From assembly GCA_964351815.1 (NCBI GenBank), contig CAYGPH010000001.1:30460-78942 (forward strand): DNA of 48,483 bases. The letters are read 5' to 3'. Below the pieces are notes generated by a model. The model ran no database searches. It worked only from the letters and a program-made list of their open reading frames with translations, and was not told where the DNA came from. Made by a program: the position numbers and the translations under genes. Positions 12,739 through 45,664 of this stretch are shown in pieces (the first letter of the stretch is position 1; the number at the start of each line of letters is the position of its first letter). The DNA is from an uncultured Verrucomicrobiales bacterium (GTDB lineage: Bacteria > Pseudomonadota > Alphaproteobacteria > Paracaedibacterales > CAITNM01).

Positions 12739-13281
12739 CTAACTTGTTATGCCTGCAGCTTTTTTAAAATCTTTAACGAATGCAGAAATTTGGCTTTGTA
12801 GTTCTTCGCTAAAAGTACTTTTTTTGTCTTTAAATTTTAGGGTAAGAATAAGGGCACCTTTTCTATATGAAACATCACCGTGTGCTATTAAATCAACCCC
12901 CTTTTGATTATAAGTAAAGCTTGCATTAGCTTTTGCATGTGATCCACCCTTACCTGTTGCTTTAATTTTTCCTTTATCATCCGTGATTAACTCTGAACTT
13001 GAAGTAAATTTTGCATTGGCAAAATCAATCTCATTATCTTTACTTTTGGTAATTATGAAAGTTTTCATGGTAGTTATAAATAGGGGCGTAGCTTTAGAAG
13101 CTAAATCCATAAAACTAAGCACTTCAGTAAGTGTTGATTCTTGAGCAGCAGGTGTTAATGTGAGTGTTACGGTGTTATTATTTTGAGCAATTGTAACTTG
13201 AGATGCTGGATCAACTGTGTTGCTAGGATGGATTTGGTTTACTGCGAGTATAAAACAGCAAATTGTTAAAATTTTTTTCAT
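12739..13281 (-). CDS. Hypothetical small secreted protein, paralog 2
   Basis: Signal peptide MKKILTICCFILAVNQIHP. It is collinear with paralog 1, with roughly half of residues identical by eye. Confidence 0.7.
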   Translation of the reverse strand: MKKILTICCFILAVNQIHPSNTVDPASQVTIAQNNNTVTLTLTPAAQESTLTEVLSFMDLASKATPLFITTMKTFIITKSKDNEIDFANAKFTSSSELITDDKGKIKATGKGGSHAKANASFTYNQKGVDLIAHGDVSYRKGALILTLKFKDKKSTFSEELQSQISAFVKDFKKAAGITS

Positions 13282-16953: not shown

Positions 16954-17547
16954 TTAGCCACCAAAGTCTTGATGATTTATTTTTTCTTGTATACTGGGTG
17001 ATGGGCGGAATTTTTTTTGTTTGATATGAATTGGTGTGTAAACGTTAAAGTTTTTTGGTAATTCATCGGCTATGGGTTTATTGACTGGCGTACCATTAAC
17101 GACAGCCATCTGACTAGGTTGAAATTGAAACTCTTCTGGGCTTTGGTCTTGTGATGTGGGCTTATTTAAACTGGCACCAACAAAAAATCCCCCCAGAAAA
17201 AATACACAGCCTAAGAACATAAAAGATGCGATTAAGCTAAAAATAATTGTTTTATTCATAGTAAATGTAAATTGCTCCGTAATATATTCATTATAAAGTT
17301 GTTGCCATAAACTGCTAGATTCTATTTTTCTATGTACTTGGTTGCCTTGGTGCAGTGGTATGGCCATAGGCCCGTGGTAAAACCTTGCAACATTTTGCCT
17401 TACGGGTATGCGTTGCTTATGAACGCTATGATTGTCATTAAATGCTGTTGGTAGGTTGTGGTTCGGTGGTGTGTAAGGCAGGTGTGCGTATGTGTGCCGC
17501 TGTTGGTCGGTATTGTATTGTTGACTGGTAAATCTGGCGGCGTACAT
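16954..17547 (-). CDS. Hypothetical single-pass membrane protein
   Basis: H/Q/N/P-rich N-terminal 95 aa, then one TM helix (IIFSLIASFMFLGCVFFLGGFFVGA). An internal start at MNKTII is possible. No family recognised. Confidence 0.45.
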   Translation of the reverse strand: MYAARFTSQQYNTDQQRHTYAHLPYTPPNHNLPTAFNDNHSVHKQRIPVRQNVARFYHGPMAIPLHQGNQVHRKIESSSLWQQLYNEYITEQFTFTMNKTIIFSLIASFMFLGCVFFLGGFFVGASLNKPTSQDQSPEEFQFQPSQMAVVNGTPVNKPIADELPKNFNVYTPIHIKQKKFRPSPSIQEKINHQDFGG

Positions 17548-17740: not shown

Positions 17741-18343
17741 ATGAGTAAGACACTTCGACTTGTTTTAATATTCATTATTGCTGTGTTTTGCTGGTTTAGT
17801 TTAGGGGTAAGGTATTATTTTCAGGAAAAAATTGTGGCAATTTCCAATAGTTTCTACGATGTAGCGAAAGATTATGGTGATGGTTTACAGCTTCGTAATT
17901 ACCATACTATGAACACAAGCAGTGTTAAATTAGAAGGTGATAGGCAAGAAACCTTAAAGCAAGGTTTTCAAATGAACAAGGATTATATCTTTGGCGAAAA
18001 CAAAAGTGGCTTAAATATTCCCATGACATCACCCGTGTTACAAAAAAAACTTGATGAAAAGTATTGGTGGGTAGCATTTGTGATGCCTTTAACCATAAAA
18101 ACAGATGATCTACCACAGCCAAAATCTGATAAGGTAATATTAGGTGTTATTGAGCCTTTTAAAGCTTTGTCATACCAGTTTTTAACAGCTCAGGAACCAA
18201 ATTTTGAAGCTGCAAGTGAAAAAATAAAGTTCATAGCTGATTCACACAAGCTTAAGCTTGCCGACACACCGTATTTAGCTTATTACAGCCCACCATGGGA
18301 AATCGTGAAAAAATATGAATTAATTTGGCAATTAGAAAACTAG
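17741..18343 (+). CDS. SOUL heme-binding family protein (membrane-anchored or secreted)
   Basis: Contains GFQMNKDYIFGENKSGLNIPMTSPVLQ, WWVAFVMPL, DDLPQPKSDKVILGVIEPFKALSYQF and YLAYYSPPW..., matching the SOUL/HBP pattern (YI.G.N..g..I.MT.PV ... M.F.mP ... P.P.d..V). Confidence 0.7.
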   Translation: MSKTLRLVLIFIIAVFCWFSLGVRYYFQEKIVAISNSFYDVAKDYGDGLQLRNYHTMNTSSVKLEGDRQETLKQGFQMNKDYIFGENKSGLNIPMTSPVLQKKLDEKYWWVAFVMPLTIKTDDLPQPKSDKVILGVIEPFKALSYQFLTAQEPNFEAASEKIKFIADSHKLKLADTPYLAYYSPPWEIVKKYELIWQLEN

Positions 18344-19053
18344 TTATACCCGTAACGTGGTGCAGCGTTTTGAGGGTAGGTCGCTGTATTCTGAGGATAA
18401 TTAGGATAAGGGGCATATCGTTGATTAGGCTGGGTATTATAGTTATTGTAAGTGCTTGAATTATATGTGCTAGGCTTTTGTGGTGCACGATTGGGATTTC
18501 CATTATTACTATAACGTGGATTATAATTATTTTTACTTCTGTTATCACCTTGGGTTCTTCTAGGGTTGTAATTGTTGTATTCTTCATCCTCATTGTTAGA
18601 ATCACTATACCTGGGCTGCCTGTTATAACGGTCATCTGACAGTCTGAATTCTTCTTCTTTTTGTAATTCCATTTGTTGGCGCTTGTGTTCTGCAATAAGT
18701 TCAGGATCTAAGGGTTTAGGTCTTTTTCCATTTAACATTGCCTCTATTCTATCTAAACGTTCATTGATTAAGCGTTCTATATCTTTGATTAAGCGTTCTA
18801 TATCTTTTAATATTTCCACTAAATTGGTGTTTGAATCGTTAGTTGAATCTTCTGATTTACTTGAATCGCCCTTTAATTTTTTTGTAGCTTGGCCTATTAA
18901 CCCCTTAAGGTCAGAAAAATCTATACCTTTACTTGCGCCATCTGCAACAGCTTGATCTTCTCCCGAAGGGAGCGCACCAAGGTCTTTTAAAAAGTTTGAT
19001 GCGTTAGCATTGCTTGCGCATAAAAAGATCAATGTTAAAAATATATTTTGCAT
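18340..19053 (-). CDS. Hypothetical secreted protein with coiled-coil middle and N/Y/P/Q-rich C-terminal tail
   Basis: Signal peptide MQNIFLTLIFLCASNANA. The tail reads NNYNPRYSNNGNPNRAPQKPSTYNSSTYNNYNTQPNQRYAPYPNYPQNTATYPQN. Its stop shares the palindrome CTAG (18340-18343) with the stop of the convergent SOUL gene. Confidence 0.6.
   Translation of the reverse strand: MQNIFLTLIFLCASNANASNFLKDLGALPSGEDQAVADGASKGIDFSDLKGLIGQATKKLKGDSSKSEDSTNDSNTNLVEILKDIERLIKDIERLINERLDRIEAMLNGKRPKPLDPELIAEHKRQQMELQKEEEFRLSDDRYNRQPRYSDSNNEDEEYNNYNPRRTQGDNRSKNNYNPRYSNNGNPNRAPQKPSTYNSSTYNNYNTQPNQRYAPYPNYPQNTATYPQNAAPRYGYN
18766..18807 (-). repeat. Perfect 21-bp in-frame tandem duplication (x2)
   Basis: gattaagcgttctatatcttt at 18766-18786 is repeated exactly at 18787-18807. 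It encodes KDIERLI-KDIERLI. Confidence 0.95.
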
Positions 19054-19154: not shown

Positions 19155-20120
19155 TTGCAAATTAGAAAATTAGGTTTTCCTGTGAAATATTTCTTAAGTA
19201 TCGTCTGTGCAATTGCGCTTAATGCTGCAAATGAAGAAAATGTTAATCATGAGGATGGTTTACCACTAACGGCCAGCTGGGTTGTGGTTGGTGATCCAAA
19301 TGCAACACTTATGAGCCCACCTGCTGATGAAAAATTTGTTCCTGAAGATTATTTTTTATCTTCAGAATCAGCCATTGATAAATCAACTTTAGCAATGGAA
19401 TATTATAAAAATAAATGGTGGGTGCTTTCGCCATTGTTAGAAGCAAAAAGTGTAAGCCTATCAATGATTTGGTCGCGGCCCTTAATTGCAAGCGTTAATA
19501 CTATACATTCCCATTGTGGTTGGAACCATAAGATGCATACACCTTTGGTTGATTTTTTTAGGGCTTTTCCAAGCCAAGAGCATTTAAACATAGGGCTGAA
19601 CACATTAAATCAACTGTTAAACCGGCTTGATGAAAAAAGTTCTTTAAAAGATAATCTTACAAAAAATATGCTAAGCATAGTTAAGACGATGGAGAATCAA
19701 TATAGTGATTCTGTGATTGGGCAGCCTATAAGTTGGTATAATCGCCTTAAAATTTGGTTGCACGGAGACAGGGAACAACTTTTACGCATTACTTGGCATC
19801 TTGAGAATACAAAAATAATGGTAGAAAAAGTTATTGCTAATCATCAGCTTGATAAAGTCTGTATTTTTTTTGATTTTCTTAGGTTGTATGATTTTTATAA
19901 TCTTTTACCGGCAGAAAAGAATTATTTTCAGGCTTTCTTAAAACTTAATCAAGCACAGCAGGTTCAGTTACTTAGCTTTATGAAGGATCAAGAAAGAGAA
20001 AGTTTTGCAAATGTTGAAGACTTTTTAAAAGAAGTTGAAAGTCATGGAACAGATGAAGAAATAGCGAATAAACTCAATAGTTTAACGCTAAAACATAGTG
20101 ATCTTGATGATCTTGATTAG
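19155..20120 (+). CDS. Hypothetical protein (probable signal peptide), ORFan
   Basis: Long clean ORF with TTG start; an alternative GTG lies at 19182 (VKYFLSIVCAIALNAANE). It has a His/Cys cluster IHSHCGWNHKMH and an acidic C-terminus. No family recognised. Confidence 0.5.
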   Translation: MQIRKLGFPVKYFLSIVCAIALNAANEENVNHEDGLPLTASWVVVGDPNATLMSPPADEKFVPEDYFLSSESAIDKSTLAMEYYKNKWWVLSPLLEAKSVSLSMIWSRPLIASVNTIHSHCGWNHKMHTPLVDFFRAFPSQEHLNIGLNTLNQLLNRLDEKSSLKDNLTKNMLSIVKTMENQYSDSVIGQPISWYNRLKIWLHGDREQLLRITWHLENTKIMVEKVIANHQLDKVCIFFDFLRLYDFYNLLPAEKNYFQAFLKLNQAQQVQLLSFMKDQERESFANVEDFLKEVESHGTDEEIANKLNSLTLKHSDLDDLD

Positions 20121-22692: not shown

Positions 22693-23791
22693 ATGAAAGC
22701 AGAATATTCAGATTTTTTTATAAGTATTGATGAATCTTTAGCCATTTTACGGAGGTTCCTTTGACCATGGTAAGGTTGATCAGCGTTTAGCAGAATTACA
22801 ACTCGCTGCGAATGACCCAGATTTGTGGAATGATCCACAGGCTGCACAAAAAACTTTACAGGAAAAAGAAAAGCTACAGCAAAGTGTAAAGCAATATAAG
22901 GATTTTGCCAGCCAAACCGAAGATTTAAAAGATCTTATCGAATTATGTGAGACTGAAGAAGATCACATTGCTGAAGCAGAAGCTTTTCAAGAATTGCAAT
23001 CTTTAAAAGTTCAGGTGAAAGATGCAGAACTTGCTAGTTTATTAAATGGCGAAGCAGATGATTGTCATGCTTTTTTAGAAGTTAATGCCGGAGCTGGTGG
23101 AACTGAATCTCAGGATTGGGCTGAAATGCTGGTACGAATGTATGGGCGATGGGCAGAAAAGCGTGGTTTTAAAACAGAAGTTATTGATCGAAATCCAGGT
23201 GAAGAAGCTGGCATTAAATCGATGACTATCAAAATTTCTGGTTTTCAAGCCTATGGCTGGTTAAAAAGTGAATCTGGTGTGCATCGGTTGGTGCGTATTT
23301 CTCCCTTTGATTCTAATGCACGGCGCCATACAAGTTTTGCATCTATTTGGGTTTATCCAGAAATAGACGATCGTATTGAAATTGCCATTGAAGATAAAGA
23401 TATTCGCATAGATACCTACCGTGCTTCTGGTGCAGGTGGTCAGCACGTTAATAAAACCGAAAGTGCTATACGTATAACTCATTTACCTACAAAAATTGTT
23501 GTACAATGCCAGAACGATCGTTCCCAGCACAGGAACAAAGCCCAAGCCATGAGCATGTTAAAGGCGCGTTTGTATGAATATGAACTGCGCCAGCGTGAAG
23601 CAGCCGCATCCGTAAATGAACCTAAAGGTGATATAGGTTGGGGGCATCAAATTCGTTCGTATGTTATGCAGCCATACCAATTGGTTAAAGATACAAGAAC
23701 GAAGGTGGAAAAAGGAAATACACAAGCCGTGCTCGACGGTGATCTTGATGATTTTTTACGTGCTAGCCTTGCGGATAAAATTAATTGTTGA
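22693..23791 (+). CDS. prfB: Peptide chain release factor 2, requires programmed +1 frameshift at 22759-22764
   Basis: Frame 1 is ATG(22693)...CGG AGG TTC CTT TGA. Shifting +1 at CTT-T-GAC joins the 22823 ORF frame (22763 and 22823 are in phase). The SPF tripeptide (RISPFDS) and GGQ (SGAGGQHVNKTES) are present. Confidence 0.93.
22751..22765 (+). promoter_or_regulatory. prfB +1 frameshift signal (internal SD-like GGAGG + CUU UGA C)
   Basis: ggaggttcctttgac: an SD-like element sits 3 nt before the slippery CTT, followed by an in-frame TGA and then C, as in the E. coli prfB autoregulatory site. Confidence 0.9.
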
Positions 23792-25717: not shown

Positions 25718-26455
25718 TTATCTTCTACCTGCCTGAAACTTTTTATAGTCTTCCACTTCTTCTTCAAGTTCATTAATTCTTTGCGCATTTTTGACTGGCA
25801 TTTGTTTAAGGCGTTCTAAATGGGTAGCCATAAAGCTGTAATCTTGTTTAGTTTGTTGGCGCTTCATATATATTTTTTCAAGTTCTTCTAGCGTAGTAGC
25901 TGATGCATGTAATTCTTCAAGGCGCCTAATTAAGTCATTTTTATCTATTCCTTGACCTGTTAAAGGCTTGTCATACAAGCAAAGACTTTCAAACTGTTCA
26001 TAGACATTTAAAACCTTCATAAGATTATCTATATTTCGTGCGATATTAAAAAGCTGCCTAAGCTTTTCTTGTACTACGTTTGAATTAATTACTGTTTCTG
26101 GCATGGGGTTTTTTTTCAGGAATTTATTCCATTCGTTAAAAACGGTAACGACACCATCAGGATCAAGCGTGTTTTCTAATAATCTTAAAAAAGCCTTTTC
26201 TACGGTTTTCAAATCTATAGCTGGATTTTTTTCATATGCATCGACAATCCTGTGTTTTGCTGCGGTCAAGTTTGCTCCTGAATATGATCGGTCAAAATTT
26301 ACAGGAAAAACTGCGAAAATGCCTGTGTTTTGTTTTGGTGAAGAGCGGGCGGCCATTGCCTTAAGCATTTCTGGAGTGTATGTTCCTTGCGCAGCGGCAA
26401 ACAAAGTTGTTGTTGATAGCAAAGAAGCTGCTATAAATACTGATAATCTTTTCAT
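25718..26455 (-). CDS. Hypothetical secreted protein, ORFan
   Basis: Signal peptide MKRLSVFIAASLLSTTTLFAAAQG, with a helical or coiled-coil-like remainder. No family recognised. Confidence 0.6.
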   Translation of the reverse strand: MKRLSVFIAASLLSTTTLFAAAQGTYTPEMLKAMAARSSPKQNTGIFAVFPVNFDRSYSGANLTAAKHRIVDAYEKNPAIDLKTVEKAFLRLLENTLDPDGVVTVFNEWNKFLKKNPMPETVINSNVVQEKLRQLFNIARNIDNLMKVLNVYEQFESLCLYDKPLTGQGIDKNDLIRRLEELHASATTLEELEKIYMKRQQTKQDYSFMATHLERLKQMPVKNAQRINELEEEVEDYKKFQAGRR

Positions 26456-26600: not shown

Positions 26601-27009
26601 TTACATTTTAACAGATGCCAAAACGATCCCTTGTTTTGCCAGGATATCAGCACGTTCATTACCTTCTATGCCGCTGTGGGCTTCTACCCATTGCCAGGTT
26701 ATTTCACGATCTTCATTTAAGAAATCCAATTCCTCCCAAAGATCCTTATTTTTCACGTCACTGTTTGCCGCTGTACGCCAGTTATTTTTTTTCCAGGTTT
26801 TTATCCAGCTTGTGATACCATCGCGCACATAGCGACTATCCGTATAAAGCGTAACATTTAAATGATAGGGAATGTTCTGCAAGCCTTTAATGCATGCTAG
26901 CAACTCCATACGGTTATTTGTGGTGTTAGATGCACCACCATACAATTCCATAGAATCGTTTTCAAAGCCCTAACCACCTGGATAGGGGAAACTATAAATG
27001 GTATTTCAT
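26601..27009 (-). pseudogene. rnhA: Ribonuclease HI, disrupted (frameshift after the start, deletion of the DGS catalytic segment, in-frame TAG)
   Basis: The 116-aa ORF carries TTNNRMEL, YTDSRYV, WKKNNWRTA and GNERADILA but lacks the N-terminal strand. Upstream in the same frame: *NTIYSFPYPGG*GFENDSMELYGG, where TAG (26970-26972) replaces the Trp of PGGWG. The ATG at 27009 is in another frame (MKYHL*). Confidence 0.8.
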
Positions 27010-27120
27010 TTAGCACCTAATCTTGTCTGATATGTTATGAACAAGTACAGTTTATATCATGTGTTTGCACCAATTTTATCGCTCTGCTAGGTTGATGCAT
27101 AAAATTACAAAATTAACTGT

Positions 27121-28086: not shown

Positions 28087-28482
28087 ATGATTGATTTATA
28101 TTTACCGGAAAAAGCACCATCGCACCGGCAACAAAAAGTTGCTGAGGAAGTAAAGTATATTGTTGCTGAATTGATGCGAGATGATAATTTGCCCCTTACT
28201 AGGGTTGATGAGGTTCTTCTAAAACCTAATGCACCGATTACAATAACCCGGGTTGATATTTCACCTGATTTACGTCATGCAACCGTATACGCCATGCCTT
28301 TAGGTGGAATTGACCAAGATAAAATGGAAAAGTACCTTAAGGAAAATGCCTGGTATATAAAAACTTACGTGGCTAAAAATTTAAAAACGCGCATTAGCCC
28401 AAGGTTAACCTTTAAACTTGATTTACAATTTGCTGATCATGAGCGTATAAATAAACTTCTTGGGAAAAATATTCCTAATTAA
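28087..28482 (+). CDS. rbfA: Ribosome-binding factor A
   Basis: Contains RQQKVAEEVKYIVAELM, ITITRVDISPDLRHATVY and PRLTFKLD. Confidence 0.88.
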   Translation: MIDLYLPEKAPSHRQQKVAEEVKYIVAELMRDDNLPLTRVDEVLLKPNAPITITRVDISPDLRHATVYAMPLGGIDQDKMEKYLKENAWYIKTYVAKNLKTRISPRLTFKLDLQFADHERINKLLGKNIPN

Positions 28483-29452
28483 CAACAATTTTTGTTTGCT
28501 CAGGCGGATCACCAGCAAGCCATGTGTTAAAACCTAACCCTTGCTTTCCATTTAGGGTTGTTGCTTGGTTGTCGTCATTTTTCAGCCTCAGGCATAAGCT
28601 AACCTTTGGTAAAGTCCCTAAATATTGCCTAAGGGATTTTTTTAATAGGGTGTAGGTAGAACCCCCAAGCTTAGGATTTTTAAAAGGTACAAAGTGTTTT
28701 ATTTGTTCAAAACTTAAGTTATCAGCTAGCAAATCAAATCCAGCATTTTGGTCCCAGGTTCCAGTACCTAATATGAGTGATTGACCAAGCACATTATGTT
28801 TTTCCTGCCTAGTACAAAGGTAACTACCATCTGTATTGGGGGCACGTTTCCAAGATCCTTGATGCGGCATTACCTGAAACGTTATGTTCGTAAGGCCGTT
28901 TAACATTAACAGCAATCCTTGCAAAGACCTACTTTGCCGCCACAAACAATCAAAAAATAGGGCCTGTTGTTTGACACTACTTAGCTGGTAACCACTTAGG
29001 TATCGCATAACAACCCCTGCGGGAGAATGGTAGGATTTTTTATGGGATAAATGTGGAAAGCGCTTTGCTTGAAAAAGATGATACAAAGCCATTAAACGAT
29101 GGTGAAAAACATCTAAAAAAGCCATCATAGCCGTATCTTTAGCTTTTAAACGTTCTAAAATAAGCTCTTTAAAAGGCTCTGGTAAGGGTGCATTTAAGTT
29201 TACCAAAGAAAAAATATTACTACTTAATTTTGGCCGTCCAGTTTTCATTAATTGCAAAGATTCAATTACAGTGCTACTTGGGGATGTTTCAGGGTGGGCA
29301 ACAACCTTAATCACATCCCGATGGGGATCTATATTTTTCCCAAACCTTGGGTTTAATGGCCGCATGGTTTCAAGCAAATAAATAAGCTGATGTATATCTA
29401 GCTGCTGGGGTTCATGAATAATTTTTTGTAAAAGGCTATATTTTTTTGTCAT
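28475..29452 (-). CDS. tssG: Type VI secretion system baseplate subunit TssG (ImpH/VasB family)
   Basis: The N-terminus LLQKIIHEPQQLDIHQLIYLLETMRP...FGKNIDPHRDVIKVVAHPETSPSSTVIESL matches the TssG pattern (p..fdFfQa.rlLE ... G....p..e.vrf...psl.Fp.sev). The size of 325 aa fits, and the gene lies 10 nt downstream of tssF. Confidence 0.8.
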   Translation of the reverse strand: MTKKYSLLQKIIHEPQQLDIHQLIYLLETMRPLNPRFGKNIDPHRDVIKVVAHPETSPSSTVIESLQLMKTGRPKLSSNIFSLVNLNAPLPEPFKELILERLKAKDTAMMAFLDVFHHRLMALYHLFQAKRFPHLSHKKSYHSPAGVVMRYLSGYQLSSVKQQALFFDCLWRQSRSLQGLLLMLNGLTNITFQVMPHQGSWKRAPNTDGSYLCTRQEKHNVLGQSLILGTGTWDQNAGFDLLADNLSFEQIKHFVPFKNPKLGGSTYTLLKKSLRQYLGTLPKVSLCLRLKNDDNQATTLNGKQGLGFNTWLAGDPPEQTKIVVN

Positions 29453-29462
29453 TTTATTGTGA

Positions 29463-31262
29463 TTATAGGGTTATAAGTGTTCCGGGTTTGAAGGCAAAAG
29501 TATACTTAAGGTCAGGACTGTCTGGATCTTCAACTGTTAGTTCAATGAACCGTTGCCAATCGACCAATTGACTAAAGTAATGTTGTAATATGCTTGCAAA
29601 AATAGTGTTTGAACCGCCGTTAGTTGAATGCAAATCTATTTGTAATTCAACATTAAACCCTTCAACATAACCTTTCCAGGCAATTTCTCCGAACCTTCGT
29701 GTTTGTGGGGAAATATTTAAGTTATGTAAATCACGCGTAAGTTGATGGCTTTTGCCAGGGTAACGATTAAGAAAAATCTCTGCTAGGGCTTTGATATGTT
29801 TTAAACCATCACTGCCATTAACGGTGCCTATATAATTGTTTGCTAGCTGGCTTATGGTTAACCAAAGGGTGTCTCCATCTTCAGGGCTATAGGCTTGTGG
29901 CACAGGTTTTTTGATAAGTTTAAAACGGTGGGCTGCAATTTTTTCTTCAGGCTCAAAAACTGTGTTTTCCGTTAGTTCATTGGCTAAATAGCGATTTGTG
30001 CAGGTAATTTCTGCAACGGCCACAACATCCTTATTTCGGGCAGGATGAAACGCATGGTCTATAAAGGAAACAAACATATCTGTTCCAGGGCTTCCCCTTA
30101 ATAAAGCTGGGCGCCTTTTAGCGTACCAAAAACAGTTTTTTTCTTGATCAAAATCTAAGCGACTGTAAAAAGGTAAATAGTTTACTGTTTTTTGTGTTGC
30201 GTCTTCTAACCCAGAAATTGAGTTAATAGCGTATATTTCCGTTGTGCGTTCCCGCCTGGTGTCAGGAATTAAGCGATAATGCACCTGCTGATGGTCGATA
30301 CGTAAAGGATCGGATGGTTTGTTAAACAAATTAATAATTGGTGTGCAAAAAAGTTGTAATTGATCAATTCCTGCGCCAGCATTTTGCCACAAATTTGTAT
30401 CCTTAAGGGAAATAATTAAACGCAAGGTTTTTTTGTTGTTTGCAGACGCAATAGCTTCATGAAGGCCAGTGAAGCGAAGGAAGAAAAACTTTTCTGGACA
30501 ATGGAAATATTCTTGTAATAGGGCAAAGCTATGGTGATTTTGGGGTTCAAGGGGTAAACCTACTTCCTCACGGCTTAATCCAACCTGTTCTATCTGACCA
30601 GCCGGAAAAATATTATTATGCTCATCAGCAACATAAACGCCCGTATTTAAACACAACAGGGTCTGTAGGGCCGCATTCGCTTTTACCCAATCGTTGCCCA
30701 TAAAAAAAACAAGGTTTGTTAGGTTTAATTTTTGTAAATCTTCCTGGCAGCTTAGGGTGATTTCAAGTACTGCTTGATCAGAAAAATTATTATTTTTTGC
30801 CGTATAATTTTCATGGATAATGGCATTTTCTACTTGAATTGGCCAAACCATTACATCGTAAACTGTGCGAAAACGGCATTGTAATTGTTCTTGGCTTCTT
30901 GCCAATAGTTTTGTGCCCTTGGGTACCAATACGCCTTTACCCTTAGCAAATTGAACTGATTTCTTATCAATTTGGCTAATCGCCATTGATGGTGTTGGTC
31001 GTACTAAGTGGGGGTATAAAACATTTAATAAGGCCTGGGCTGTTTCCGGGTGGTGATCATCAAGGGTTTTGGATAACCTGGCGGTTAAATAAGCAAAAGA
31101 TTCCAATAAACGTTCAACGTGTGGGTCCGAAGATTCTGTTTCACTGTAATCTAGCCGGTGAGCAATTTTAGGATGTTGTTTAGCAAAGTCACGGCCTGCA
31201 TTGCGCAAGTATGCCATTTCTTCTTGATAATAAGCAACTAAACTGCCATCAACCTTGGCCAT
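29463..31262 (-). CDS. tssF: Type VI secretion system baseplate subunit TssF (ImpG/VasA family)
   Basis: LVAYYQEEMAYLRNAGRDFAKQHPKIAHRLDYSETESSDPHVERLLESFAYLTARLSKTLDDHHPETAQALLNVLYPHLVRPTPSM is a near-textbook TssF N-terminus. At 599 aa it is full length. Confidence 0.9.
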   Translation of the reverse strand: MAKVDGSLVAYYQEEMAYLRNAGRDFAKQHPKIAHRLDYSETESSDPHVERLLESFAYLTARLSKTLDDHHPETAQALLNVLYPHLVRPTPSMAISQIDKKSVQFAKGKGVLVPKGTKLLARSQEQLQCRFRTVYDVMVWPIQVENAIIHENYTAKNNNFSDQAVLEITLSCQEDLQKLNLTNLVFFMGNDWVKANAALQTLLCLNTGVYVADEHNNIFPAGQIEQVGLSREEVGLPLEPQNHHSFALLQEYFHCPEKFFFLRFTGLHEAIASANNKKTLRLIISLKDTNLWQNAGAGIDQLQLFCTPIINLFNKPSDPLRIDHQQVHYRLIPDTRRERTTEIYAINSISGLEDATQKTVNYLPFYSRLDFDQEKNCFWYAKRRPALLRGSPGTDMFVSFIDHAFHPARNKDVVAVAEITCTNRYLANELTENTVFEPEEKIAAHRFKLIKKPVPQAYSPEDGDTLWLTISQLANNYIGTVNGSDGLKHIKALAEIFLNRYPGKSHQLTRDLHNLNISPQTRRFGEIAWKGYVEGFNVELQIDLHSTNGGSNTIFASILQHYFSQLVDWQRFIELTVEDPDSPDLKYTFAFKPGTLITL

Positions 31263-31306
31263 GGGATATTTTTTTTAAACTTTAACAAAAATTTTAGCAG
31301 TTATTC

Positions 31307-31348
31307 TCTCCAAGACTCAAGTAAGATAATCCACTTGGTTCTTGGAGA
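31307..31348 (-). promoter_or_regulatory. Imperfect long hairpin in the tssF upstream/leader region
   Basis: tctccaaga (31307-31315) pairs with tcttggaga (31340-31348), and the inner pair is caagt (31318-31322) with acttg (31333-31337). It lies 45-86 nt upstream of the tssF ATG. Confidence 0.3.
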
Positions 31349-31557
31349 AACTAATTAGCATGTTAGGCTAGCATGTATTTTAATGCATATTGTTTCTAAT
31401 AACACATTTCAAGGGGACTGCAGTGGCTAAAACCAAAGTCATCTTTCACGTTGTCGCCAAAATATTCTGGATCTTCAGGTTTTTCATGGTCACTGGGTTG
31501 ATAATTTTCGTTTATGGACCCTTTGCAAGTGCTTGTTGGGCTATTTTGATTCTTTTG

Positions 31558-31851
31558 TCAAAAAATGGATATGCGTTTTGTTGTAGAATTAAAATCTGAT
31601 AAACTCGGGTAACGTTGAATTTTTAACTTATTATTCCTCTCAGTTAAAAGCCCGGTATTCCTTTTTTCTTCTTCAAGAAAAGAAGAACACGTTCCAATTG
31701 AACCATCTTTTACCACCGGACAATGCATGGAAATTGCTTGGGTATTTTGCAGTTGTAAGGGTTTATCCAAACTTCCGGGGATTTCTTTTCCGGTAATCAC
31801 GCTTAGCAAACTGGTAACAAAAAGAAACATGAAATACTTTGAAAACTGCAT
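31558..31851 (-). CDS. Small hypothetical secreted protein (97 aa from MQFSKYF)
   Basis: Signal peptide MQFSKYFMFLFVTSLLSVITG and two Cys. It is co-oriented with and upstream of tssF but shows no resemblance to TssE/gp25. Confidence 0.45.
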   Translation of the reverse strand: MQFSKYFMFLFVTSLLSVITGKEIPGSLDKPLQLQNTQAISMHCPVVKDGSIGTCSSFLEEEKRNTGLLTERNNKLKIQRYPSLSDFNSTTKRISIF

Positions 31852-32016: not shown

Positions 32017-34722
32017 ATGACCCTGCATCTTGTTGATGGTTCTGGCTACATCTTTCGTGCTTACTATGCACTGCCACCTTTATCTACTCCAGAGGGTGTT
32101 CCAGCTGGTGCCGTTTACGGATTTACGAACATGCTACTGCGGCTTATGGAATCCGTTAAAGATGATCGACTGCTTGTCGTTTTTGATGCTGGACGACAAA
32201 ACTTTCGGCATAATTTATATCCTGACTATAAAGCAAATCGCGCTAGTCCCCCCGAAGATTTGATTCCACAGTTTTCACTTATTCGTGAAGCCTGTAATGC
32301 ATTAGGTGTCCCATGCCTCGAAATTCCTGGTTTTGAAGCTGATGATATTATCGCAACAATGTCTGTTAGGGCCAGTGCCGAAAATCAAAAAACACGAATT
32401 ATTTCAGGCGATAAAGACCTCATGCAATTGCTTAATCAGCAGGTGGAAATGTTTGATCCTGTCAAAAATAAACCTGTGGATGCGGAAGTTATTTTTAATA
32501 AGTTTGGTGTTACAGCCGATAAGGTAATAGAAGTTCAAGCCTTATGTGGTGATAGTTCAGATAACATTCCGGGTGTTCCTGGAATTGGTCCTAAAACAGC
32601 TGCAGAGCTTATTCATACCTTTGGTGATGTTGAAACCCTTTTAGCAAAAGCTGCCACAGAGATTAAGCAACCTAAACGACGCCAAAGTTTGATTGATAAC
32701 CGTGAACTTGCCCTAATTTCCAAACAATTAGTGACCTTAAAAACTGATGTGCCTTTGCCATATGGTATAAGCAGCATACCTGATGTAAAAACAGATTTCA
32801 CACAATTGCATAGTTTTTTAGACCGCATGGGGTTTAAAAGTTTAAGCAAGCGTTTGCAGCAAAAAGGCATGGGTGGGCATGAACCATTATTAAGTGCTAC
32901 TCAACAAGTTGTAAAGCAACAAATTGAATCCATTTGTATTACCGATGAAGCGACTTTAAAAAAGTGGTTGTTAGATGTTGAAAAAACCGGACTATTGGTT
33001 ATAGATGTGGAAACGACCGGCCTAAACACGCGTACTGCTGATTTGGTTGGAATTAGCCTTGGTGTTAAGCTAAATACCCTATGGCAAGGTGCCTATATTC
33101 CCGTTGGGCATAAAACAGAAAGCCAACAATTACCCCTTGCTTTGGTCAAAACCCATTTAAAAAAATTACTTTTAAACCACCAGATTACCAAAATTGGTCA
33201 TAACCTTAAATTCGATATGGCTATCCTTGAACGCTATGGCTTACCGATTAAAAGCTTACAAGATACCATGTTACTATCCTATTGTTTGTATGCAGGATTG
33301 CACGGTCATAGCATGGATGAATTATCTGAACGTTACTTAAATTATAAGCCGATTGGATTTAAGGAGGTTGCCGGTATTGGAAAAAAACAAGTGACATTTG
33401 ATGAGGTTGATTTGGAAAAAGCAACCCAGTATGCGGGTGAAGATGCTGTTATTACAGGAAAATTATATGATTTTCTGCAGCCTCAACTAGTCGAAAAACA
33501 AGTGAATCAAATATATTACACCGTAGAACGCCCTTTAATTCCTGTAATACAATCTATGGAAAAGATTGGTGTAAAAGTTGATCGTGAAAGTTTAGAAAAT
33601 ATCGGTAAAAGTTTTCTAGCCCAAATTACAGATCTTGAAAATGAAATTATTGGCTTAGCGGGAGAGGAATTTAACGTGGCATCACCGAAGCAGTTAGGTG
33701 AAATTCTATTTGATAAGCTTGGTCTTCCTAAGCCAAAAAAAACAAAAACTGGCACCTATGCAACCGATACCAAGGTGTTGGAAGATCTGGCAAATCAGGG
33801 TTACGCCATTGCTGATAAACTTATTGCATGGCGGGGGTTAAGCAAACTTTATTCGACCTATGTAGAGGGTTTACTAGAAGCCCAAGATTCCATTACCCAA
33901 AGGGTTCATACTTGCTATTCAATGGTTGGCGCTGCAACGGGTCGTTTATCATCATCTGACCCGAACTTGCAAAATATTCCTGTTCGAACGAATGATGGCC
34001 AAAAAATTCGTAAAGCTTTTATAGCAGATCAGGGTTATACGCTTTATAGCCTAGACTATTCACAAATTGAATTACGCCTTTTGGCTCACTTTGCAGATGT
34101 TCCAACACTGCAACAAGCTTTTGTTGATGGTCAAGATATTCATAAGATTACTGCTATGGAAGTGTTCCATAAAACTGAAAGGGAAATGACACAAGAATTG
34201 CGCCGGCAAGCCAAGGCGATCAACTTTGGTATCATCTACGGCATCAGTAATTTTGGTCTTGCCAAACAATTGCAATGCAGCAATGGCGAAGCTCAAGATA
34301 TTATTCGTCATTACTTTGAAAAATACCCAGGTATTCAAGCCTATATGGAAGCCTATAAGGAATATGCATCCCACCATGGTTATGTGAAAACCCTGTTTAA
34401 TCGACGTGTACATTTACCCTTCATTAAGGATCGTAATTATAATTTACGCAACTTTGCTGAACGCCAAGCCATTAATGCACCTTTACAGGGCAGCAACGCA
34501 GATATTATTAAAGTTGCTATGGCAAAAGTATTTGATTTTTTAAAAGACAAAAAAACCCGCATGCTGTTACAAGTGCACGATGAATTAATTTTTGAAGTGC
34601 CAGAAGAGGAAATAACTACAGTGCCACAACAACTGCAAACAATTATGCAGGGAATTACCCAACTTAAAGTACCGTTAAAGGTTGATATAGGTTGTGGCCC
34701 CAATTGGCATGCAGCCCATTAA
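32017..34722 (+). CDS. polA: DNA polymerase I
   Basis: 5'-nuclease N-terminus (LHLVDGSGYIFRAYYA), 3'-5' exo block (VIDVETTGL), and Pol motifs DYSQIELRLLAH and LLQVHDELIFEV. Confidence 0.97.
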   Translation: MTLHLVDGSGYIFRAYYALPPLSTPEGVPAGAVYGFTNMLLRLMESVKDDRLLVVFDAGRQNFRHNLYPDYKANRASPPEDLIPQFSLIREACNALGVPCLEIPGFEADDIIATMSVRASAENQKTRIISGDKDLMQLLNQQVEMFDPVKNKPVDAEVIFNKFGVTADKVIEVQALCGDSSDNIPGVPGIGPKTAAELIHTFGDVETLLAKAATEIKQPKRRQSLIDNRELALISKQLVTLKTDVPLPYGISSIPDVKTDFTQLHSFLDRMGFKSLSKRLQQKGMGGHEPLLSATQQVVKQQIESICITDEATLKKWLLDVEKTGLLVIDVETTGLNTRTADLVGISLGVKLNTLWQGAYIPVGHKTESQQLPLALVKTHLKKLLLNHQITKIGHNLKFDMAILERYGLPIKSLQDTMLLSYCLYAGLHGHSMDELSERYLNYKPIGFKEVAGIGKKQVTFDEVDLEKATQYAGEDAVITGKLYDFLQPQLVEKQVNQIYYTVERPLIPVIQSMEKIGVKVDRESLENIGKSFLAQITDLENEIIGLAGEEFNVASPKQLGEILFDKLGLPKPKKTKTGTYATDTKVLEDLANQGYAIADKLIAWRGLSKLYSTYVEGLLEAQDSITQRVHTCYSMVGAATGRLSSSDPNLQNIPVRTNDGQKIRKAFIADQGYTLYSLDYSQIELRLLAHFADVPTLQQAFVDGQDIHKITAMEVFHKTEREMTQELRRQAKAINFGIIYGISNFGLAKQLQCSNGEAQDIIRHYFEKYPGIQAYMEAYKEYASHHGYVKTLFNRRVHLPFIKDRNYNLRNFAERQAINAPLQGSNADIIKVAMAKVFDFLKDKKTRMLLQVHDELIFEVPEEEITTVPQQLQTIMQGITQLKVPLKVDIGCGPNWHAAH

Positions 34723-36003: not shown

Positions 36004-37089
36004 TTAAAAATTAAAAAAGCTCGGAAATTTAGGCATTGGTCTCATTTTAGGCATTGGTCTCATTTCACGCACAGGTCTCATTTCACGCCTAGGCAAAGCT
36101 GCTCCATTAAGAAAAAATCCTGAAGATTGTCTGCTTGATAAGAATTGCTGATGTGAAGCAACACCATTTATTGTTCTTGTGGTGCTACTGTTGTATGATT
36201 CGGAATGAGTCCATGCCATTATGATGGGTAAATTGTCTTGTAACGTTGCATCTGCTTGTAACGCTGGTGCTGCTACTTGTAAAGTTTGAGCTACCTGTAA
36301 CGTTGGAGCTGCTTGTAACGCTGGTGCTACTTGCGCAGGAGCTGCTTGTAACGTCGGAGTTAGTTGTATGGATGTGCGCATATAACTTAAAATACTATTT
36401 ATTTCTCCCTTATTTTTTTCCTTAGAATCTTGTTTTAAACATTCCCATTTAAAACCTTTAAGCGGGCTATTTTTACTTGCAAAACACTCAAGGGGTCTCT
36501 GGTTAAAGCTTTTGACAGAAAGTAAAATTAAATGAAAGACAAAATCATCAACGTTTTCGTATGTGCTATCTAAAAGTTGCATAGAAAAGTCACCATCCGA
36601 ATTTCTTGCACTATTGCTTTTTTTCACAAAGCTGCACATTTCATTTTCTATTTCTTGCAATGTCATTTTTGAGGATGAGATCGACATAGAGTCATCTGAA
36701 CTAAATTTGCTATCTATAGTTGATAAAATTATCGCTGCAAACACCTTTTTTTTAAGTTTTTTATTTTCAATAGAAGAAAACAGTCTGATTGACATATTTT
36801 GATTAATATACTCTGGCAAAGAAACAAGTTGCAAAATTTCATTTTCTACCTGGTAACTTTTAAAAAATTCTGCAGGTGTTTTTTCATTGTCGTTTTTATC
36901 ATCATGCGGGATGCACGTGTTAATTTTTAACGCATAATCTTGAAGAGCTTGATCATTTTGAAATATTGGTGCAAATTTTGTGAATTCACTTTCCTGTCTA
37001 TATTCGTTTTTTTGAATGCCTGCTGCATTAAGGGCGCATAAGCACATAACAAGAAGGGTCAAATATTTTTTTGGATCTTTATAAAACAT
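36004..37089 (-). CDS. Hypothetical secreted protein, paralog A (repeat-rich C-terminus)
   Basis: Signal peptide present. The central region is collinear with paralog B (KTPAEFFKSYQVENEILQLVSLPEY, KKLKKK, MTLQEIENEMC, CFASKNSPLKGFKWECLK). The C-terminus is made of A/P/LQ repeats and MRP repeats. Confidence 0.7.
   Translation of the reverse strand: MFYKDPKKYLTLLVMCLCALNAAGIQKNEYRQESEFTKFAPIFQNDQALQDYALKINTCIPHDDKNDNEKTPAEFFKSYQVENEILQLVSLPEYINQNMSIRLFSSIENKKLKKKVFAAIILSTIDSKFSSDDSMSISSSKMTLQEIENEMCSFVKKSNSARNSDGDFSMQLLDSTYENVDDFVFHLILLSVKSFNQRPLECFASKNSPLKGFKWECLKQDSKEKNKGEINSILSYMRTSIQLTPTLQAAPAQVAPALQAAPTLQVAQTLQVAAPALQADATLQDNLPIIMAWTHSESYNSSTTRTINGVASHQQFLSSRQSSGFFLNGAALPRREMRPVREMRPMPKMRPMPKFPSFFNF
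36031..36093 (-). repeat. 18-bp in-frame tandem repeat, about 3.5 units
   Basis: Units are aggcattggtctcatttt (36031-36048), aggcattggtctcatttc (36049-36066), acgcacaggtctcatttc (36067-36084) and a partial unit. They encode REMRPV-REMRPM-PKMRPM-PKF. Confidence 0.9.
36237..36365 (-). repeat. Degenerate in-frame repeats containing cttgtaacg (LQ codons)
   Basis: The motif (c)ttgtaa(c/a)g recurs at about 36237, 36255, 36275, 36294, 36311 and 36344. It encodes PTLQAAPAQVAPALQAAPTLQVAQTLQVAAPALQADATLQ. Confidence 0.8.
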
Positions 37090-37658: not shown

Positions 37659-38621
37659 TTAAGACGCAGCTTCCCTATAGGTGATAACGAAAGTTAGTCC
37701 CCTAAATTTTGTTTTGTATTTTTCTGAGAGCTTTCCATTTACTGGAAAATGTGGATTAGTCTTTCCATTTTCAAAAAATTCTTTTACGTCGAAGTCGTAA
37801 CTTCGTCCTGAAATTACTGTTTCTCCGCTATTAGTTTTTTCTACACAATGTGCTGTTCCGACAAGATTAGCTTCACGGCATTTATGTTTAAGCATTAAAC
37901 ATAAAATATTAGTTTTTATACCTTCAGGATTTGCTTTTAAGTCTTTCCATTTAAAATCTTTCAGCAAGCTTGTTTCACTTGCAAAAGATTGAATAGGGTT
38001 ATTATTAATCTTTGTAGGAGAAATATAAATTAAATGTAACACGAGATCATGAATACTATCGTAGGTCCTGCTAATCAATGGTTCTGCAGTCGTATTTTCA
38101 TGGTTACTAGCATGTATGCACTTTGGATCTCCAAAAATGCATATTGCATTCTCTATTTCTTGTAATGTTAATTGTGATGAAAGAATTTTTATTGCATCTT
38201 CGTTGCTGAAAACTGAACTAATGCTTGATAGAATAAATGCTGCTAGCGCTTTCTTTTTTAGATTTTTATTTTGAATTATGTCAAAAAGTCTATATAAAAT
38301 TTCTGGTTTTCTATATTCAGGTAAAGTTACAAGTTGCAAAATTTCTTTTTCTGCCTTGTAACTTTTAAAAAATTCTGTAGGGGTTTTTTGTTCGCTAGTT
38401 TTGTCGTGAAGAGGAATACAATCGTTAATTTCCGATAAATAATTTACTAAACTTAAACCATTTTTAAATACTTCCTTATCACCATGGAATTCTGGGTAAT
38501 TATCTGTTAAGGCCATCATACCAGAATTTTTGTCTACCAGCTCTTCAGCAGCCTTAAGGTAAAAAAAACTAAAGCATAAAAACAGCAAACTTAAATGCTT
38601 TTTCTTGCAGATACATATCAT
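37659..38621 (-). CDS. Hypothetical secreted protein, paralog B (unique C-terminal module)
   Basis: Signal peptide present. The central region is collinear with paralog A (KTPTEFFKSYKAEKEILQLVTLPEY, KNLKKK, LTLQEIENAIC, SFASETSLLKDFKWKDLK). The C-terminal ~90 aa are unrelated to paralog A. Confidence 0.7.
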   Translation of the reverse strand: MICICKKKHLSLLFLCFSFFYLKAAEELVDKNSGMMALTDNYPEFHGDKEVFKNGLSLVNYLSEINDCIPLHDKTSEQKTPTEFFKSYKAEKEILQLVTLPEYRKPEILYRLFDIIQNKNLKKKALAAFILSSISSVFSNEDAIKILSSQLTLQEIENAICIFGDPKCIHASNHENTTAEPLISRTYDSIHDLVLHLIYISPTKINNNPIQSFASETSLLKDFKWKDLKANPEGIKTNILCLMLKHKCREANLVGTAHCVEKTNSGETVISGRSYDFDVKEFFENGKTNPHFPVNGKLSEKYKTKFRGLTFVITYREAAS

Positions 38622-42479: not shown

Positions 42480-42956
42480 TTAGGCAATAGCCTTATGATG
42501 TTCATAAAGATGTGTGGGTTTTTGCCATGTGGGCCAGCCATCATGCAGATCATTCAGGTATACTTCTATCTTACTAACTTGCACAAGCATTTGTTTGTCG
42601 TGGGAAAAAATAAGCTTTAGTTCGTAACCTTTTTTTGCCTTTGAAACATCTATGTGTAAAAGGTTTAACATATTATCCCTTGGTTTTGAATCCTTAGGAA
42701 ACTGATGAAACCCACGGTTCATTACGTGTGTGACATGGCAAAACAAAAGACCCATATTAGCCCGGCAGTATAACGGTGTTCCCATATGTGAACTTTGATG
42801 ATTCCAGCAAAATCGGTTCACCAGTAAAGAAAAAGTATTTTTTTCATATACCATGGCTGATATGGGGCAAATACCTTCTTTCAACTGCAGGCTAATGTGG
42901 TAGAGATCTTCTTCCGACTTAGCTAATACTTTTATTTTTTTATGATTGGGTAACAT
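42480..42956 (-). CDS. Conserved alphaproteobacterial protein, DUF2948-like
   Basis: [45 protein letters not shown] resembles the DUF2948 N-terminal pattern (L.L.A.D.eDL.v.Sa..QDAv....dm.y.......f.l..NRF.WE). Called from memory of the family. Confidence 0.5.
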
Positions 42957-43026
42957 TTTTGAATCTGTGCATCAGCGTTTGAACATGCTAGATTTAATTA
43001 TTGGACAACAAAAATATAAAGGCAAC

Positions 43027-43950
43027 ATGCTTGTGAAAAAAAATATCATTGATCAGGAAAATCAAGAGTTTGAAAGCTTCTCTACAAAGCGAGCTACGGT
43101 TTTTGAACTTGAAGAAATTCTTTATGAGCCCATAAAGGTTCTTGATCATGGTTTCATTCGTGTTGTCGATTATATGGGGAACGATAATGCTATCGTGCAA
43201 TCTGCCAGAGTTTCGTACGGTAAGGGTACAAAAAAGCTTAGCCAGGATCAGGGTTTAATTAATTATTTAATGCGCCATTGGCATACAACACCCTTTGAAA
43301 TGTGTGAATTAAAACTGCATGTAAAGCTGCCTATGTTTGTTGCTAGACAATGGATTCGCCATCGTACAGCAAATGTGAATGAATATTCTGCGCGGTATTC
43401 TATTTTGGATAAGGAATTTTATATTCCCAAACATCAGCAGTTAGCTGCGCAGTCTACTGAGAATAAACAGGGTAGGGGGCAGCTAATAGAAGGTGCTGAA
43501 GCAGAAAATGTTTTGGAACTTCTAAAACGCGATGCTGCGCAAGCCTATGACACTTATGAATACTTACTTAATGAAGGAGACAACCGCGACGAATCGCGTT
43601 CCAGTTTATCGCGGGAACTTGCAAGAATGAATCTTCCCGTTAATTATTATACCCAGTGGTATTGGAAAATTGATTTGCATAACCTTATGCATTTTGTGCG
43701 CTTGCGTGCAGACCACCATGCGCAATACGAAATTCAGGCCTATGCTAAAATTTTACAGGATATCATGCAACGATGGGTCCCCATGGCCTATGCTGCTTTT
43801 TTAGATTATCGACAAAATTCTGCTCAGCTTTCCGGTAAAATGGTAACTGTTTTAAAACGTATGCTAAAGGGAGAGCAAGTGTCTCAGGCAGATAGTGATT
43901 TAACAACCAGGGAATGGCAAGAAATGCAGGGTATAATTCATGACAGTTAG
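43027..43950 (+). CDS. thyX: FAD-dependent thymidylate synthase ThyX
   Basis: ThyX motif [14 protein letters not shown] (RHR-X7-S), plus [19 protein letters not shown] and [24 protein letters not shown]. The start is uncertain: the ORF opens at 42946, and ATG 43027 gives a conventional N-terminus. Confidence 0.88.
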
Positions 43951-45664
43951 TAATACACTTATCAACATTTTTTCCATAGCAATAGCATTGTGCACCGTTG
44001 CCTGTGAAAAAAAAGAAAGTAAATCACAACAGCATACTTCTGAAAACCTTTTAGAAGAACCTACGAAAAGCCAAAATACCCAAATCGAAACGGCGAATGA
44101 AAATCTGTTTCAGCAAGAAAATTCCCATGAAGTTACCTTTAAAAAAACAACGGATACTCTAAATTTACCCACACCACAACAAGTTGAAACCCTAAAACTT
44201 TTGTTACAAAGTACCGATCTTGATGTTAATAGTAATACGGTGAAACAGGCCCTTGAAGAATCAAGCTTAGCCTCCCTGTTTGTTTATCAATTCTATAAGG
44301 AATTTATTTTGTATTTACAAAATCCTGAGAAAGGCGAACAGCGGGCGCAAACTTACTTAAACTTTTTATCTAAAGCTGTGCTTGATAAGGGACTAGGTAT
44401 GATGGACCTTGATCAATCACCAGATGCAGAAAAACCGCTAAATCTTTTCTTGCAATACATAGGACATATTTCTTTTTACATTATTGCAAATAACAAACAA
44501 CTTTTTCCCTATACCATTCCACCTTGGGTTGTAAAAATGTATCCCAAGGTTACTGCTCATCGCCTCGGACGCAATCATGCAGAGTTATCATACACAGGGT
44601 TCGTAAAAAGCCCTTCCTTTCAAATTTTAAATACCTTTTTAAATGAAGCTATTCAACCCGGTGAACTGCCAAGCTACGCTACAAATTTTTTTGGTACCCA
44701 TCAATTTGATCTTGATGCATCACGTGAAACAGCTAAGGGTATGTTAAATTTTTACCCCATGGGTTTGATAGATAAAGATGATCCCACAACAATTGTTTCA
44801 GAAACCAAAAAAAATATACTTATTTGGGCAAGTCTTGGGGTTTACAATGCCCAGCTTTACAACCAGTTTAATCTACATTTTCAGGGAATTCTAAAGGATT
44901 ACCAAAAACATACTTTGGAAATACATGGTGATTTGGATGAAAAAATTTTGAAAGCTGCTTTCTATAACTATATTGCTTATTATTTTATTACCCATGAACC
45001 CATAGCTAGTGTTTTCCTTTATAAGCAATCTGATTTTACAAAAGCGAACATTGAAAAAGCCCTCCATTTACAGCAAAAAGCCCTTGGAGAAGTGCATTCA
45101 GATTCAAAAACATTTTATAATGAAATACTATGCCGTGCTATAACCCTTGGTGTAGATTTGGAAATTATTGAATGGCTTATAGATACAAAAAAGGCAGATA
45201 TAAATTATGCTTTCTTTGATGAAACACCCCTAATGCGGGCTTGCGACAAACCTAATATTTTGAAGTTTCTTTTGCAAAAAAAAACCAAGGTAGACCAAAC
45301 AAACACCTTCGGTAAAACGGCCTTATTTTATGCTATTCAATATGGAAATTTGGATACGGTAAAATTAATTGTAGAAGCAGGTGCAAATGTAAATGCCAAA
45401 ATTTATTCCCTCGATAAATTAAAAAAACTTGCCTTCGACTTTAGTTCAAAAAAACCAGGGCCGATTGTTTTGCTTGAACAGGTGGCAGACTTTACGCCAT
45501 CCATTTATGCAAAACGTTATGCCACCATTGATGTGCAAAATTATTTGCAGAAAAAAAATGCAAACGATGGTAAAATTGATGCAGAACGTGTGAAAAAATG
45601 GCTGAGTTTTAAGGATGGGCATACGATTCATAATGCTCCTGCTGAGCCTGGTACTACACCTTAG
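43940..45664 (+). CDS. Ankyrin-repeat protein with N-terminal signal/possible lipoprotein sequence
   Basis: N-terminus [21 protein letters not shown] repeats near the C-terminus: [60 protein letters not shown]. The ATG overlaps the thyX stop by 11 nt. Confidence 0.8.

Follow-up and report, generated by a model that had tools for sequence, protein, structure and literature searches.

How does a pair of baseplate genes of the type VI secretion system (T6SS) come to stand by itself amid housekeeping genes? The question is raised by tssF and tssG in a 48,483-nucleotide stretch of DNA (assembly GCA_964351815.1, contig CAYGPH010000001.1, positions 30,460 to 78,942), here called the window, from whose first letter positions are counted unless another contig is named. 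The pair very probably constitutes one module of a T6SS scattered over several loci, which is the layout of intracellular alphaproteobacteria of the Holosporales/Paracaedibacteraceae type. What the window holds is a new, deep-branching example of the already published dispersed Holosporales-type T6SS, not a new apparatus.

The two genes, the spacer between them and the upstream region are located on the minus strand as follows:

tssF, 29463..31262 (-), 599 aa, T6SS baseplate wedge subunit (PF05947, E 6.3e-149)
tssG, 28475..29452 (-), 325 aa, T6SS baseplate wedge subunit (PF06996, E 5.3e-47)
spacer TCACAATAAA, 29453..29462 (-), 10 nt from the tssF stop codon (TAA) to the tssG ATG, read directly from the sequence
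region upstream of tssF, 31263..31557 (-), intergenic, with one sigma-70-like match from a consensus scan, a candidate promoter only

Both products were matched over their full length above the curated Pfam thresholds, TssF with 497.8 bits (cut-off 25; positions 4-596 of the 608 of the T6SS_TssF profile, PF05947) and TssG with 161 bits (cut-off 24.6; positions 1-303 of the 304 of the T6SS_TssG profile, PF06996). The identification of TssG is also borne out by its position, since it is encoded immediately 3' of tssF, 10 nt past the tssF stop codon. An initial annotation, made from the letters and their open reading frames (ORFs), had described TssF (599 aa) and TssG (325 aa) as full length and 10 nt apart, with a near-consensus TssF N-terminal motif. 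Coordinates, Pfam matches and spacer all agree with this description, the motif DPHVERLLESFAYLTARL is present, and both ORFs proved to be strong Pfam matches, whereas the annotation had named a failure of the TssF/TssG hidden Markov models (HMMs) to match them as an outcome that would speak against it.

The baseplate wedge of enteroaggregative Escherichia coli (EAEC) has the stoichiometry (TssK3)2-(TssF)2-TssG-TssE, with two TssF and one TssG per wedge. Homology of the window TssF to the experimentally solved protein extends over the whole chain, residues 7-581 aligning with residues 4-571 of the EAEC TssF chain (6giy_A/6GJ1/6N38; E 9.6e-41); the match of TssG to 6giy_C is weak (E 9.5e-4) and covers residues 17-130 only, the N-terminal third. 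The shared strand and the 10-nt gap imply co-transcription of tssF and tssG. The candidate promoter (TTGAGT-18-TAAAAT with TG, 31320-31291) lies 29 nt 5' of the tssF ATG, and sigma-70-like matches upstream of tssF, 6 in number versus 12.7 expected in shuffled sequences, were not above chance.

No T6SS component besides tssFG was found in the 48.5-kb window by Pfam scans, which took in ORFs of at least 100 aa minus shadows of identified genes (opposite strand or other frame), by phmmer searches with all proteins of the Rhizobium etli pRetNXC12e and Pseudomonas aeruginosa H3-type clusters against ORFs of at least 50 aa, or with 15 HMMs built from canonical clusters (TssA, B, C, E, H, J-like, K, L, M, Hcp, VgrG, YwqK, DUF4280, TagF and TagJ; ORFs of at least 40 aa, E<=0.1). 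The remaining core genes of a complete T6SS(i), which has 13 components (TssA-M including Hcp and VgrG), were not found at this locus, and the three approaches concur with the earlier statement that the 48 kb contain no further T6SS gene. The separation of [tssG-tssF] from tssE, tssBC-hcp, tssK-L-M-A and vgrG, by which the dispersed Holosporales-type T6SS is recognized, is therefore what the window displays.

Homologous loci were drawn from 185,579 species representatives, among which the window genome is not included. The closest TssF homologues, 43-46% identical, come from freshwater metagenome-assembled genomes (MAGs) that are unnamed or labelled Candidatus (Ca.) Finniella/Odyssella, hereafter group A; Holosporales MAGs, Ca. 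Odyssella thessalonicensis, Ca. Paracaedibacter symbiosus and Paracaedibacteraceae MAGs follow at 34-39%. TssG is 32-38% identical to the nearest known sequences. The top ~98 named TssF matches belong to Holosporales, Paracaedibacteraceae, Odyssella and unclassified Alphaproteobacteria, with the one exception of a Nitrospinae-labelled MAG at rank 73, and other phyla enter the list from about rank 99. In this match ranking, TssF and TssG group with Holosporales/Paracaedibacteraceae sequences, and the GTDB loci give the same picture.

Flanking genes and composition make it probable that the window genome is that of a Holosporales-type alphaproteobacterium. Thus, prfB is 79% identical to that of Holosporales UBA11393, thyX 65-66% to those of two Holosporales-type MAGs, gltX 53% to that of a Ca. 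Finniella MAG, and the MFS and EamA transporters 46-47% and 57%, respectively, to those of group-A genomes. The best tetranucleotide matches to the window are Holosporales-type loci, the highest correlation among all loci being r=0.89. The window has a GC content of 0.366, carries DUF2948, flagellar and ankyrin genes, and contains neither rRNA nor tRNA genes. On these sequence comparisons, the organism would probably be a deep branch among Holosporales-type lineages.

To the initial annotation, a lone tssFG pair was unexpected. It is instead the documented layout in this lineage (PMC8163844), and it was found at 45 of 80 related loci. These 80 species-representative loci were compared with up to 10 kb of flank on each side, all T6SS components being mapped. 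At the 45 loci, whose GC content ranges from 0.34 to 0.54 (mostly 0.36-0.45), tssFG occurs without tssE, tssBC, hcp or tssK-L-M-A in the flanks; the pair is wholly alone at 38 of them (at L058 tssF only, at a contig end), and the locus of the other 7 also contains a vgrG(-ywqK), at positions ranging from immediately 3' of tssG (L070) to some 8 kb upstream. Canonical-type clustering was observed at the remaining 35 loci, with tssK-L-M-A-B-C-hcp-E-F-G-(H)-vgrG-ywqK-DUF4280 in full where the contig is long enough. The latter come mostly from high-GC, free-living organisms (Azospirillum, Insolitispirillum, Stellaceae, Geminicoccaceae, Acidobacteriota and Nitrospirales) and include an intermediate arrangement, tssF-G-H-vgrG-ywqK-DUF4280-tssJ, in Alphaproteobacteria bacterium 43-37 (L082, 4266-15127), which is possibly a snapshot of cluster break-up. 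The distribution of 45 separated versus 35 canonical-type loci indicates fragmentation of an ancestral H3-like cluster in the symbiont lineage, with the F-G pair left together; the window TssF and TssG descend from an H3-like T6SS(i) cluster that is still contiguous in free-living Rhodospirillales-type relatives.

Dispersal was also measured directly. In the Holosporales MAG GCA_977971875.1, tssFG (at about 16.7-19.5 kb) and vgrG (161.6-163.8 kb) lie on the same 306-kb contig about 142 kb apart, each flanked by housekeeping genes, and tssFG is alone amid housekeeping genes in a group-A contig (L002), a Holosporales MAG (L004) and a 1.68 Mb P. symbiosus scaffold (L005). Part of the neighborhood is shared as well. 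Either thyX or DUF2948 is found directly 5' of tssF in Holosporales-type MAGs (L037/L058 and L031/L041), and rbfA lies 3' of tssG in L041. In the window, tssG is directly adjoined by rbfA, and DUF2948-thyX (42480-43950) is located 11 kb away. These shared neighbors argue for an old, stable housekeeping location of tssFG and suggest an ancestral DUF2948/thyX-tssFG-rbfA neighborhood that was later split by rearrangement.

The isolated [tssG-tssF] module has been described as a conserved arrangement in Bodocaedibacteraceae, Paracaedibacteraceae and Caedimonadaceae (Midha et al., 2021; PMC8163844). In the complete genome of Ca. Bodocaedibacter vickermanii, TssF/TssG are encoded by CPBP_00125/00126, TssE by CPBP_00258, YwqK/VgrG by CPBP_00352-00355, TssJ-like/K/L/M/A by CPBP_00933-00937 and TssB/C/Hcp by CPBP_00985-00987, and all these T6SS genes have RNA-seq reads (PMC8163844, supplement). 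Later papers report that nearly all sequenced Holosporineae genomes, Holospora excepted, have a conserved T6SS, and later papers and reviews describe the Holosporales system as "reduced but potentially functional" or "probably non-standard". By phylogenetic bracketing, tssBC-hcp, tssK-L-M-A, tssE and vgrG would be expected elsewhere in the window genome.

If the EAEC wedge (6GIY/6N38) and the gene sets published for Holosporales are a guide, TssF and TssG would form the (TssF)2-TssG core of each wedge and would be joined in trans by TssE and two TssK trimers whose genes lie elsewhere on the chromosome. Six such wedges would surround the VgrG hub, and the resulting baseplate would dock on TssJLM and nucleate the Hcp tube and the TssBC sheath; the assembled machine could then deliver effectors into the eukaryotic host or into competitors. 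Operon linkage would have been lost during rearrangement of the symbiont genome, with the survival of small modules whose proteins interact directly (F-G, B-C-Hcp, K-L-M-A and VgrG-YwqK). Assembly of a T6SS does not require its genes to be linked.

Conservation was computed against 78 TssF and 70 TssG relatives, a column being taken as conserved at 90% or more. The window TssF keeps 83 of 98 conserved columns (85%) and has the majority residue at 20% of the variable ones; for TssG, the values are 28 of 35 (80%) and 15%. TssF thus retains most conserved residues, though its retention is the lowest of the set. About 11 of its 15 changed conserved residues are conservative swaps (F58Y, L139V, F302L, L450I, L478I, L496I, R530K, F532Y, N570Q, W589F and A96S). 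The initial annotation had proposed a comparison of nonsynonymous with synonymous substitution rates (dN/dS, omega). For group A, a sister clade with the same lone pair, this gave NG86 omega values of 0.04-0.09 for tssF and 0.05-0.13 for tssG, indicative of purifying selection; for the window branch the comparison was uninformative, dS versus the nearest relatives being saturated (pS 0.75-0.86) so that no omega is computable. Judged by the conserved columns and the group-A omega, the tssFG pair looks maintained by position-specific constraint.

Besides this saturation, several observations weigh against a maintained, scattered system. Among the 79 TssF and 71 TssG sequences compared, those of the window diverge most; the relatives retain 91-100% and 83-100% of the conserved columns, respectively, and the mean identity of the window proteins to canonical TssF (33.7%) and TssG (24.6%) is below that of group A (36.8% and 30.7%). 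Such divergence could come from rapid evolution of the lineage or from somewhat relaxed selection. There is also some genome erosion, the 5' end of the nearby rnhA being lost, with in-frame stop codons. Finally, other T6SS modules of this organism were not found in a search that was limited rather than genome-wide (Logan contigs end at the window ends and allow no extension beyond them), and no VgrG from sample ERR3534985 was among the candidates checked with group-A VgrG (L010) as baits. The divergence, the erosion and the lack of a VgrG among the candidates checked would fit a relic, in which the rest of the T6SS was lost in a deep-branching lineage and tssF and tssG are its last survivors, non-functional but not yet pseudogenised; the reported absence of the T6SS from Holospora indicates that loss does happen in the order. 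Nevertheless, a relic is unlikely. Both reading frames, of 599 and 325 codons, are unbroken in a genome of 37% GC, the rate at which residues are kept is four to five times higher at conserved than at variable columns, and purifying selection on the same lone pair is strong in group A. Moreover, tssFG has diverged no more than nearby transporter genes, the TssF identity to three group-A genomes (43-45%) being about equal to that of the MFS and EamA proteins of the same genomes, and the failure to see the other modules reflects the limits of the search.

Several candidates for the other modules were considered and rejected. VgrG sequences at the expected identity belonged to other samples or assemblies (P0151, SRR22387790; P0152, ERZ1066127; P0153, ERZ650264; P0228, SRR13490892) or were NCBI MAG proteins, probably from the MAGs behind loci L039 and L024 (P0148 and P0150). 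An orphan VgrG from GCA_964442815.1 (P0210) was judged not to come from the window genome, its tetranucleotide correlation with the window being r=0.41 versus 0.95 within the window. A scan of metagenome contigs with an AT-biased TssC motif retrieved 57 loci (including L135 and L098), none with the composition of the window, and a TssC homology search was uninformative, as the protein is too conserved and the top 120 matches were from mixed phyla at 73-78% identity.

The immediate surroundings of the pair bear on the remaining alternatives and comprise three features:

rbfA, 28087-28482 (+), convergent with tssG
polA, 32017-34722 (+), divergent from tssF, with a 755-nt gap between them
orf97, 31558-31851 (-), an orphan 97-aa ORF directly 5' of tssF and the only ORF in the tssF-polA gap

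ORF positions and Pfam matches confirm rbfA and polA, which had already been named as the neighbors. The 3' ends of tssG and rbfA overlap by 8 nt (28475-28482), and no terminator-like hairpin was found at this junction. The orf97 product has a signal-peptide-like N-terminus, and the gene is also called in the Logan contig described below; it had no Pfam match, no match to the T6SS HMMs and no homologue in about 50 related loci, on which grounds it was ruled out as a hidden TssE or TssJ.

It is quite improbable that tssFG is maintained without a complete canonical T6SS, either as a functional remnant with reduced or non-canonical partners or through co-option into another structure. If true, the window would represent a natural minimal-baseplate experiment. 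The specific form of co-option in which the TssF-TssG wedge core serves another contractile or adhesive apparatus (an extracellular contractile injection system, eCIS, a phage-tail-like particle or something undescribed) without the other T6SS core proteins is very remote. All that speaks for it is the absence of other T6SS genes in 48 kb, together with the labels "probably non-standard" and "reduced" that reviews have given to the Holosporales T6SS. However, no sheath, tube, gp25-like, spike or other phage-tail/eCIS family was detected among the window ORFs scanned by Pfam, genomes with every other T6SS core gene have the same lone pair, and the phylogenetic position of TssF and TssG is within ordinary H3-like T6SS(i) clusters. 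Nor does any conserved unknown partner gene adjoin tssFG across the relatives, and orf97 is an orphan. Among the explanations offered by the initial annotation, a T6SS scattered across a symbiont genome is the one favoured by the evidence, in agreement with the published layout and with the related loci, and recruitment to an undescribed apparatus is without support.

Placement of the pair by a chimeric assembly or a recent horizontal insertion can practically be dismissed, given that run ERR3534985, assembled independently in Logan, gives the order radical-SAM gene-polA-orf97-tssF-tssG-rbfA-yggT-dedA with the same junctions on both sides, which excludes a misassembly, that GC is flat across the tssFG region and equal to the flanks and the tetranucleotide signature of the 12-kb piece with tssFG matches the rest of the window (r=0.95), which marks the pair as native, that no mobile-element genes, tRNA or repeats were found flanking it, and that relatives have the same arrangement. 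Assembly error does not explain the tssFG pair, which is native to this low-GC genome.

Apart from tssFG, the window is housekeeping. The other genes identified are flgD/flgE, a glycosyltransferase gene, a gene for an SBP_bac_5 binding protein, xseA, holB, rne, htrA, an arginase-family gene, gltX, genes for a SOUL protein and a helix-turn-helix regulator, eno, prfB, Bax1-I, rnhA, dedA, yggT, a radical-SAM gene, ccmF, dapE, dapD, DUF2948, thyX, and genes for an ankyrin-repeat protein and for MFS and EamA transporters. The release factor 2 gene prfB, at 22693-23791 (+), has the classical programmed +1 frameshift: a 23-codon ORF0 (MKAEY...LRRFL) has CTT TGA as its last codons (22759-22764), and reading continues in the main frame from 22763 (DHGKVDQRL...). 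In rnhA, at 26601-27120 (-), only positions 38-140 of the 141 of the RNase_H profile were matched, the N-terminal catalytic region is unrecognisable and the 5' in-frame sequence holds two stop codons; the gene is probably truncated or a pseudogene eroded at its 5' end, and a sign of genome erosion. The ankyrin-repeat protein (43940-45664 (+), 574 aa; Ank_2, E 2.5e-16) is eukaryote-like and of a kind typical of intracellular symbionts, which makes it a plausible candidate for a secreted effector. Two adjacent ORFs without family assignment, at 36004-37089 (-) (361 aa) and 37659-38621 (-) (320 aa), may encode lineage-specific effectors; the former had a very weak match to Josephin, a deubiquitinase family, which is below threshold (E 0.048). 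No Pfam match was obtained for the ORFs at 240-1259, 6275-7423, 12027-12611, 12739-13281, 16954-17547, 18340-19053, 19155-20120, 25718-26455 and 45615-46313.

Some further observations concern the related loci. The group-A loci L009, L010, L011, L055, L016 and L023, as well as L002 (1-9932), have a vgrG-ywqK module about 8 kb 5' of tssFG. In L002, the interval between the two modules encodes two large proteins without family (781 and 837 aa), and two patatin-like phospholipases are encoded near; these are candidate T6SS effectors. Two low-GC metagenome contigs carry complementary modules of a T6SS, hcp-tssC-tssB-tssA-tssM-tssL-tssK without tssEFG in L098 (1413-12562) and tssB-tssC-hcp alone in L135 (54-2771). 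Regarding public records, several of the MAGs behind L038, L041, L058, L059 and L084 have Holosporales-type lone tssFG loci (GC 0.37-0.42) and are labelled Patescibacteria or Verrucomicrobiales, probably through mistakes in binning or taxonomy; L059 and L084, where tssE-F-G is visible, may likewise be wrongly labelled as Bacteroidetes and Ignavibacteria.

As a discovery, the window carries little weight, adding one deep-branching lineage to the Holosporales-type symbionts with scattered T6SS modules. What had been published for a few named genomes is extended to dozens of MAGs by the comparative map built around the window, with 35 canonical-type and 45 separated loci. The recurrence of a lone F-G pair marks it as a unit that survives fragmentation, consistent with TssF and TssG being obligate direct partners in the wedge. 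In addition, locus-based T6SS callers miss or mislabel dispersed systems, and a call of "incomplete T6SS" in Holosporales-type genomes should not be taken as decay.

Compared with known systems, the window pair resembles the TssKFGE wedge of EAEC Sci-1 (6GIY, 6GJ1, 6N38) in that TssF aligns end to end and TssG over its N-terminal region; it differs in that sequence identity is low. Homology to the canonical H3-like T6SS(i) clusters of Rhodospirillales, Acidobacteriota, Nitrospirales and P. aeruginosa (H3-T6SS; L045-L087, L007) amounts to 30-35% identity for TssF and about 25% for TssG, and both proteins score higher against the P. aeruginosa H3 type than against the R. etli type. The association vgrG-ywqK(-DUF4280) is common to H3-like clusters and Holosporales-type modules. 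However, whereas the canonical clusters span 20-25 kb with tssE-F-G contiguous, tssBC-hcp upstream and (tssH)-vgrG downstream, the window keeps only the F-G linkage. With respect to the Holosporales-type dispersed T6SS itself, the window differs from the relatives in the greater divergence of its TssF and TssG, from most of them in having rbfA and polA as immediate neighbors, and from Ca. Bodocaedibacter vickermanii in that the other modules have not been seen. It shares with that system (PMC8163844) the isolated [tssG-tssF] module amid housekeeping genes with no tssE beside tssF, a low-GC genome, probably alphaproteobacterial and of symbiont type, with its ankyrin protein and flagellar genes, and TssF and TssG sequences that cluster with those of these symbionts.

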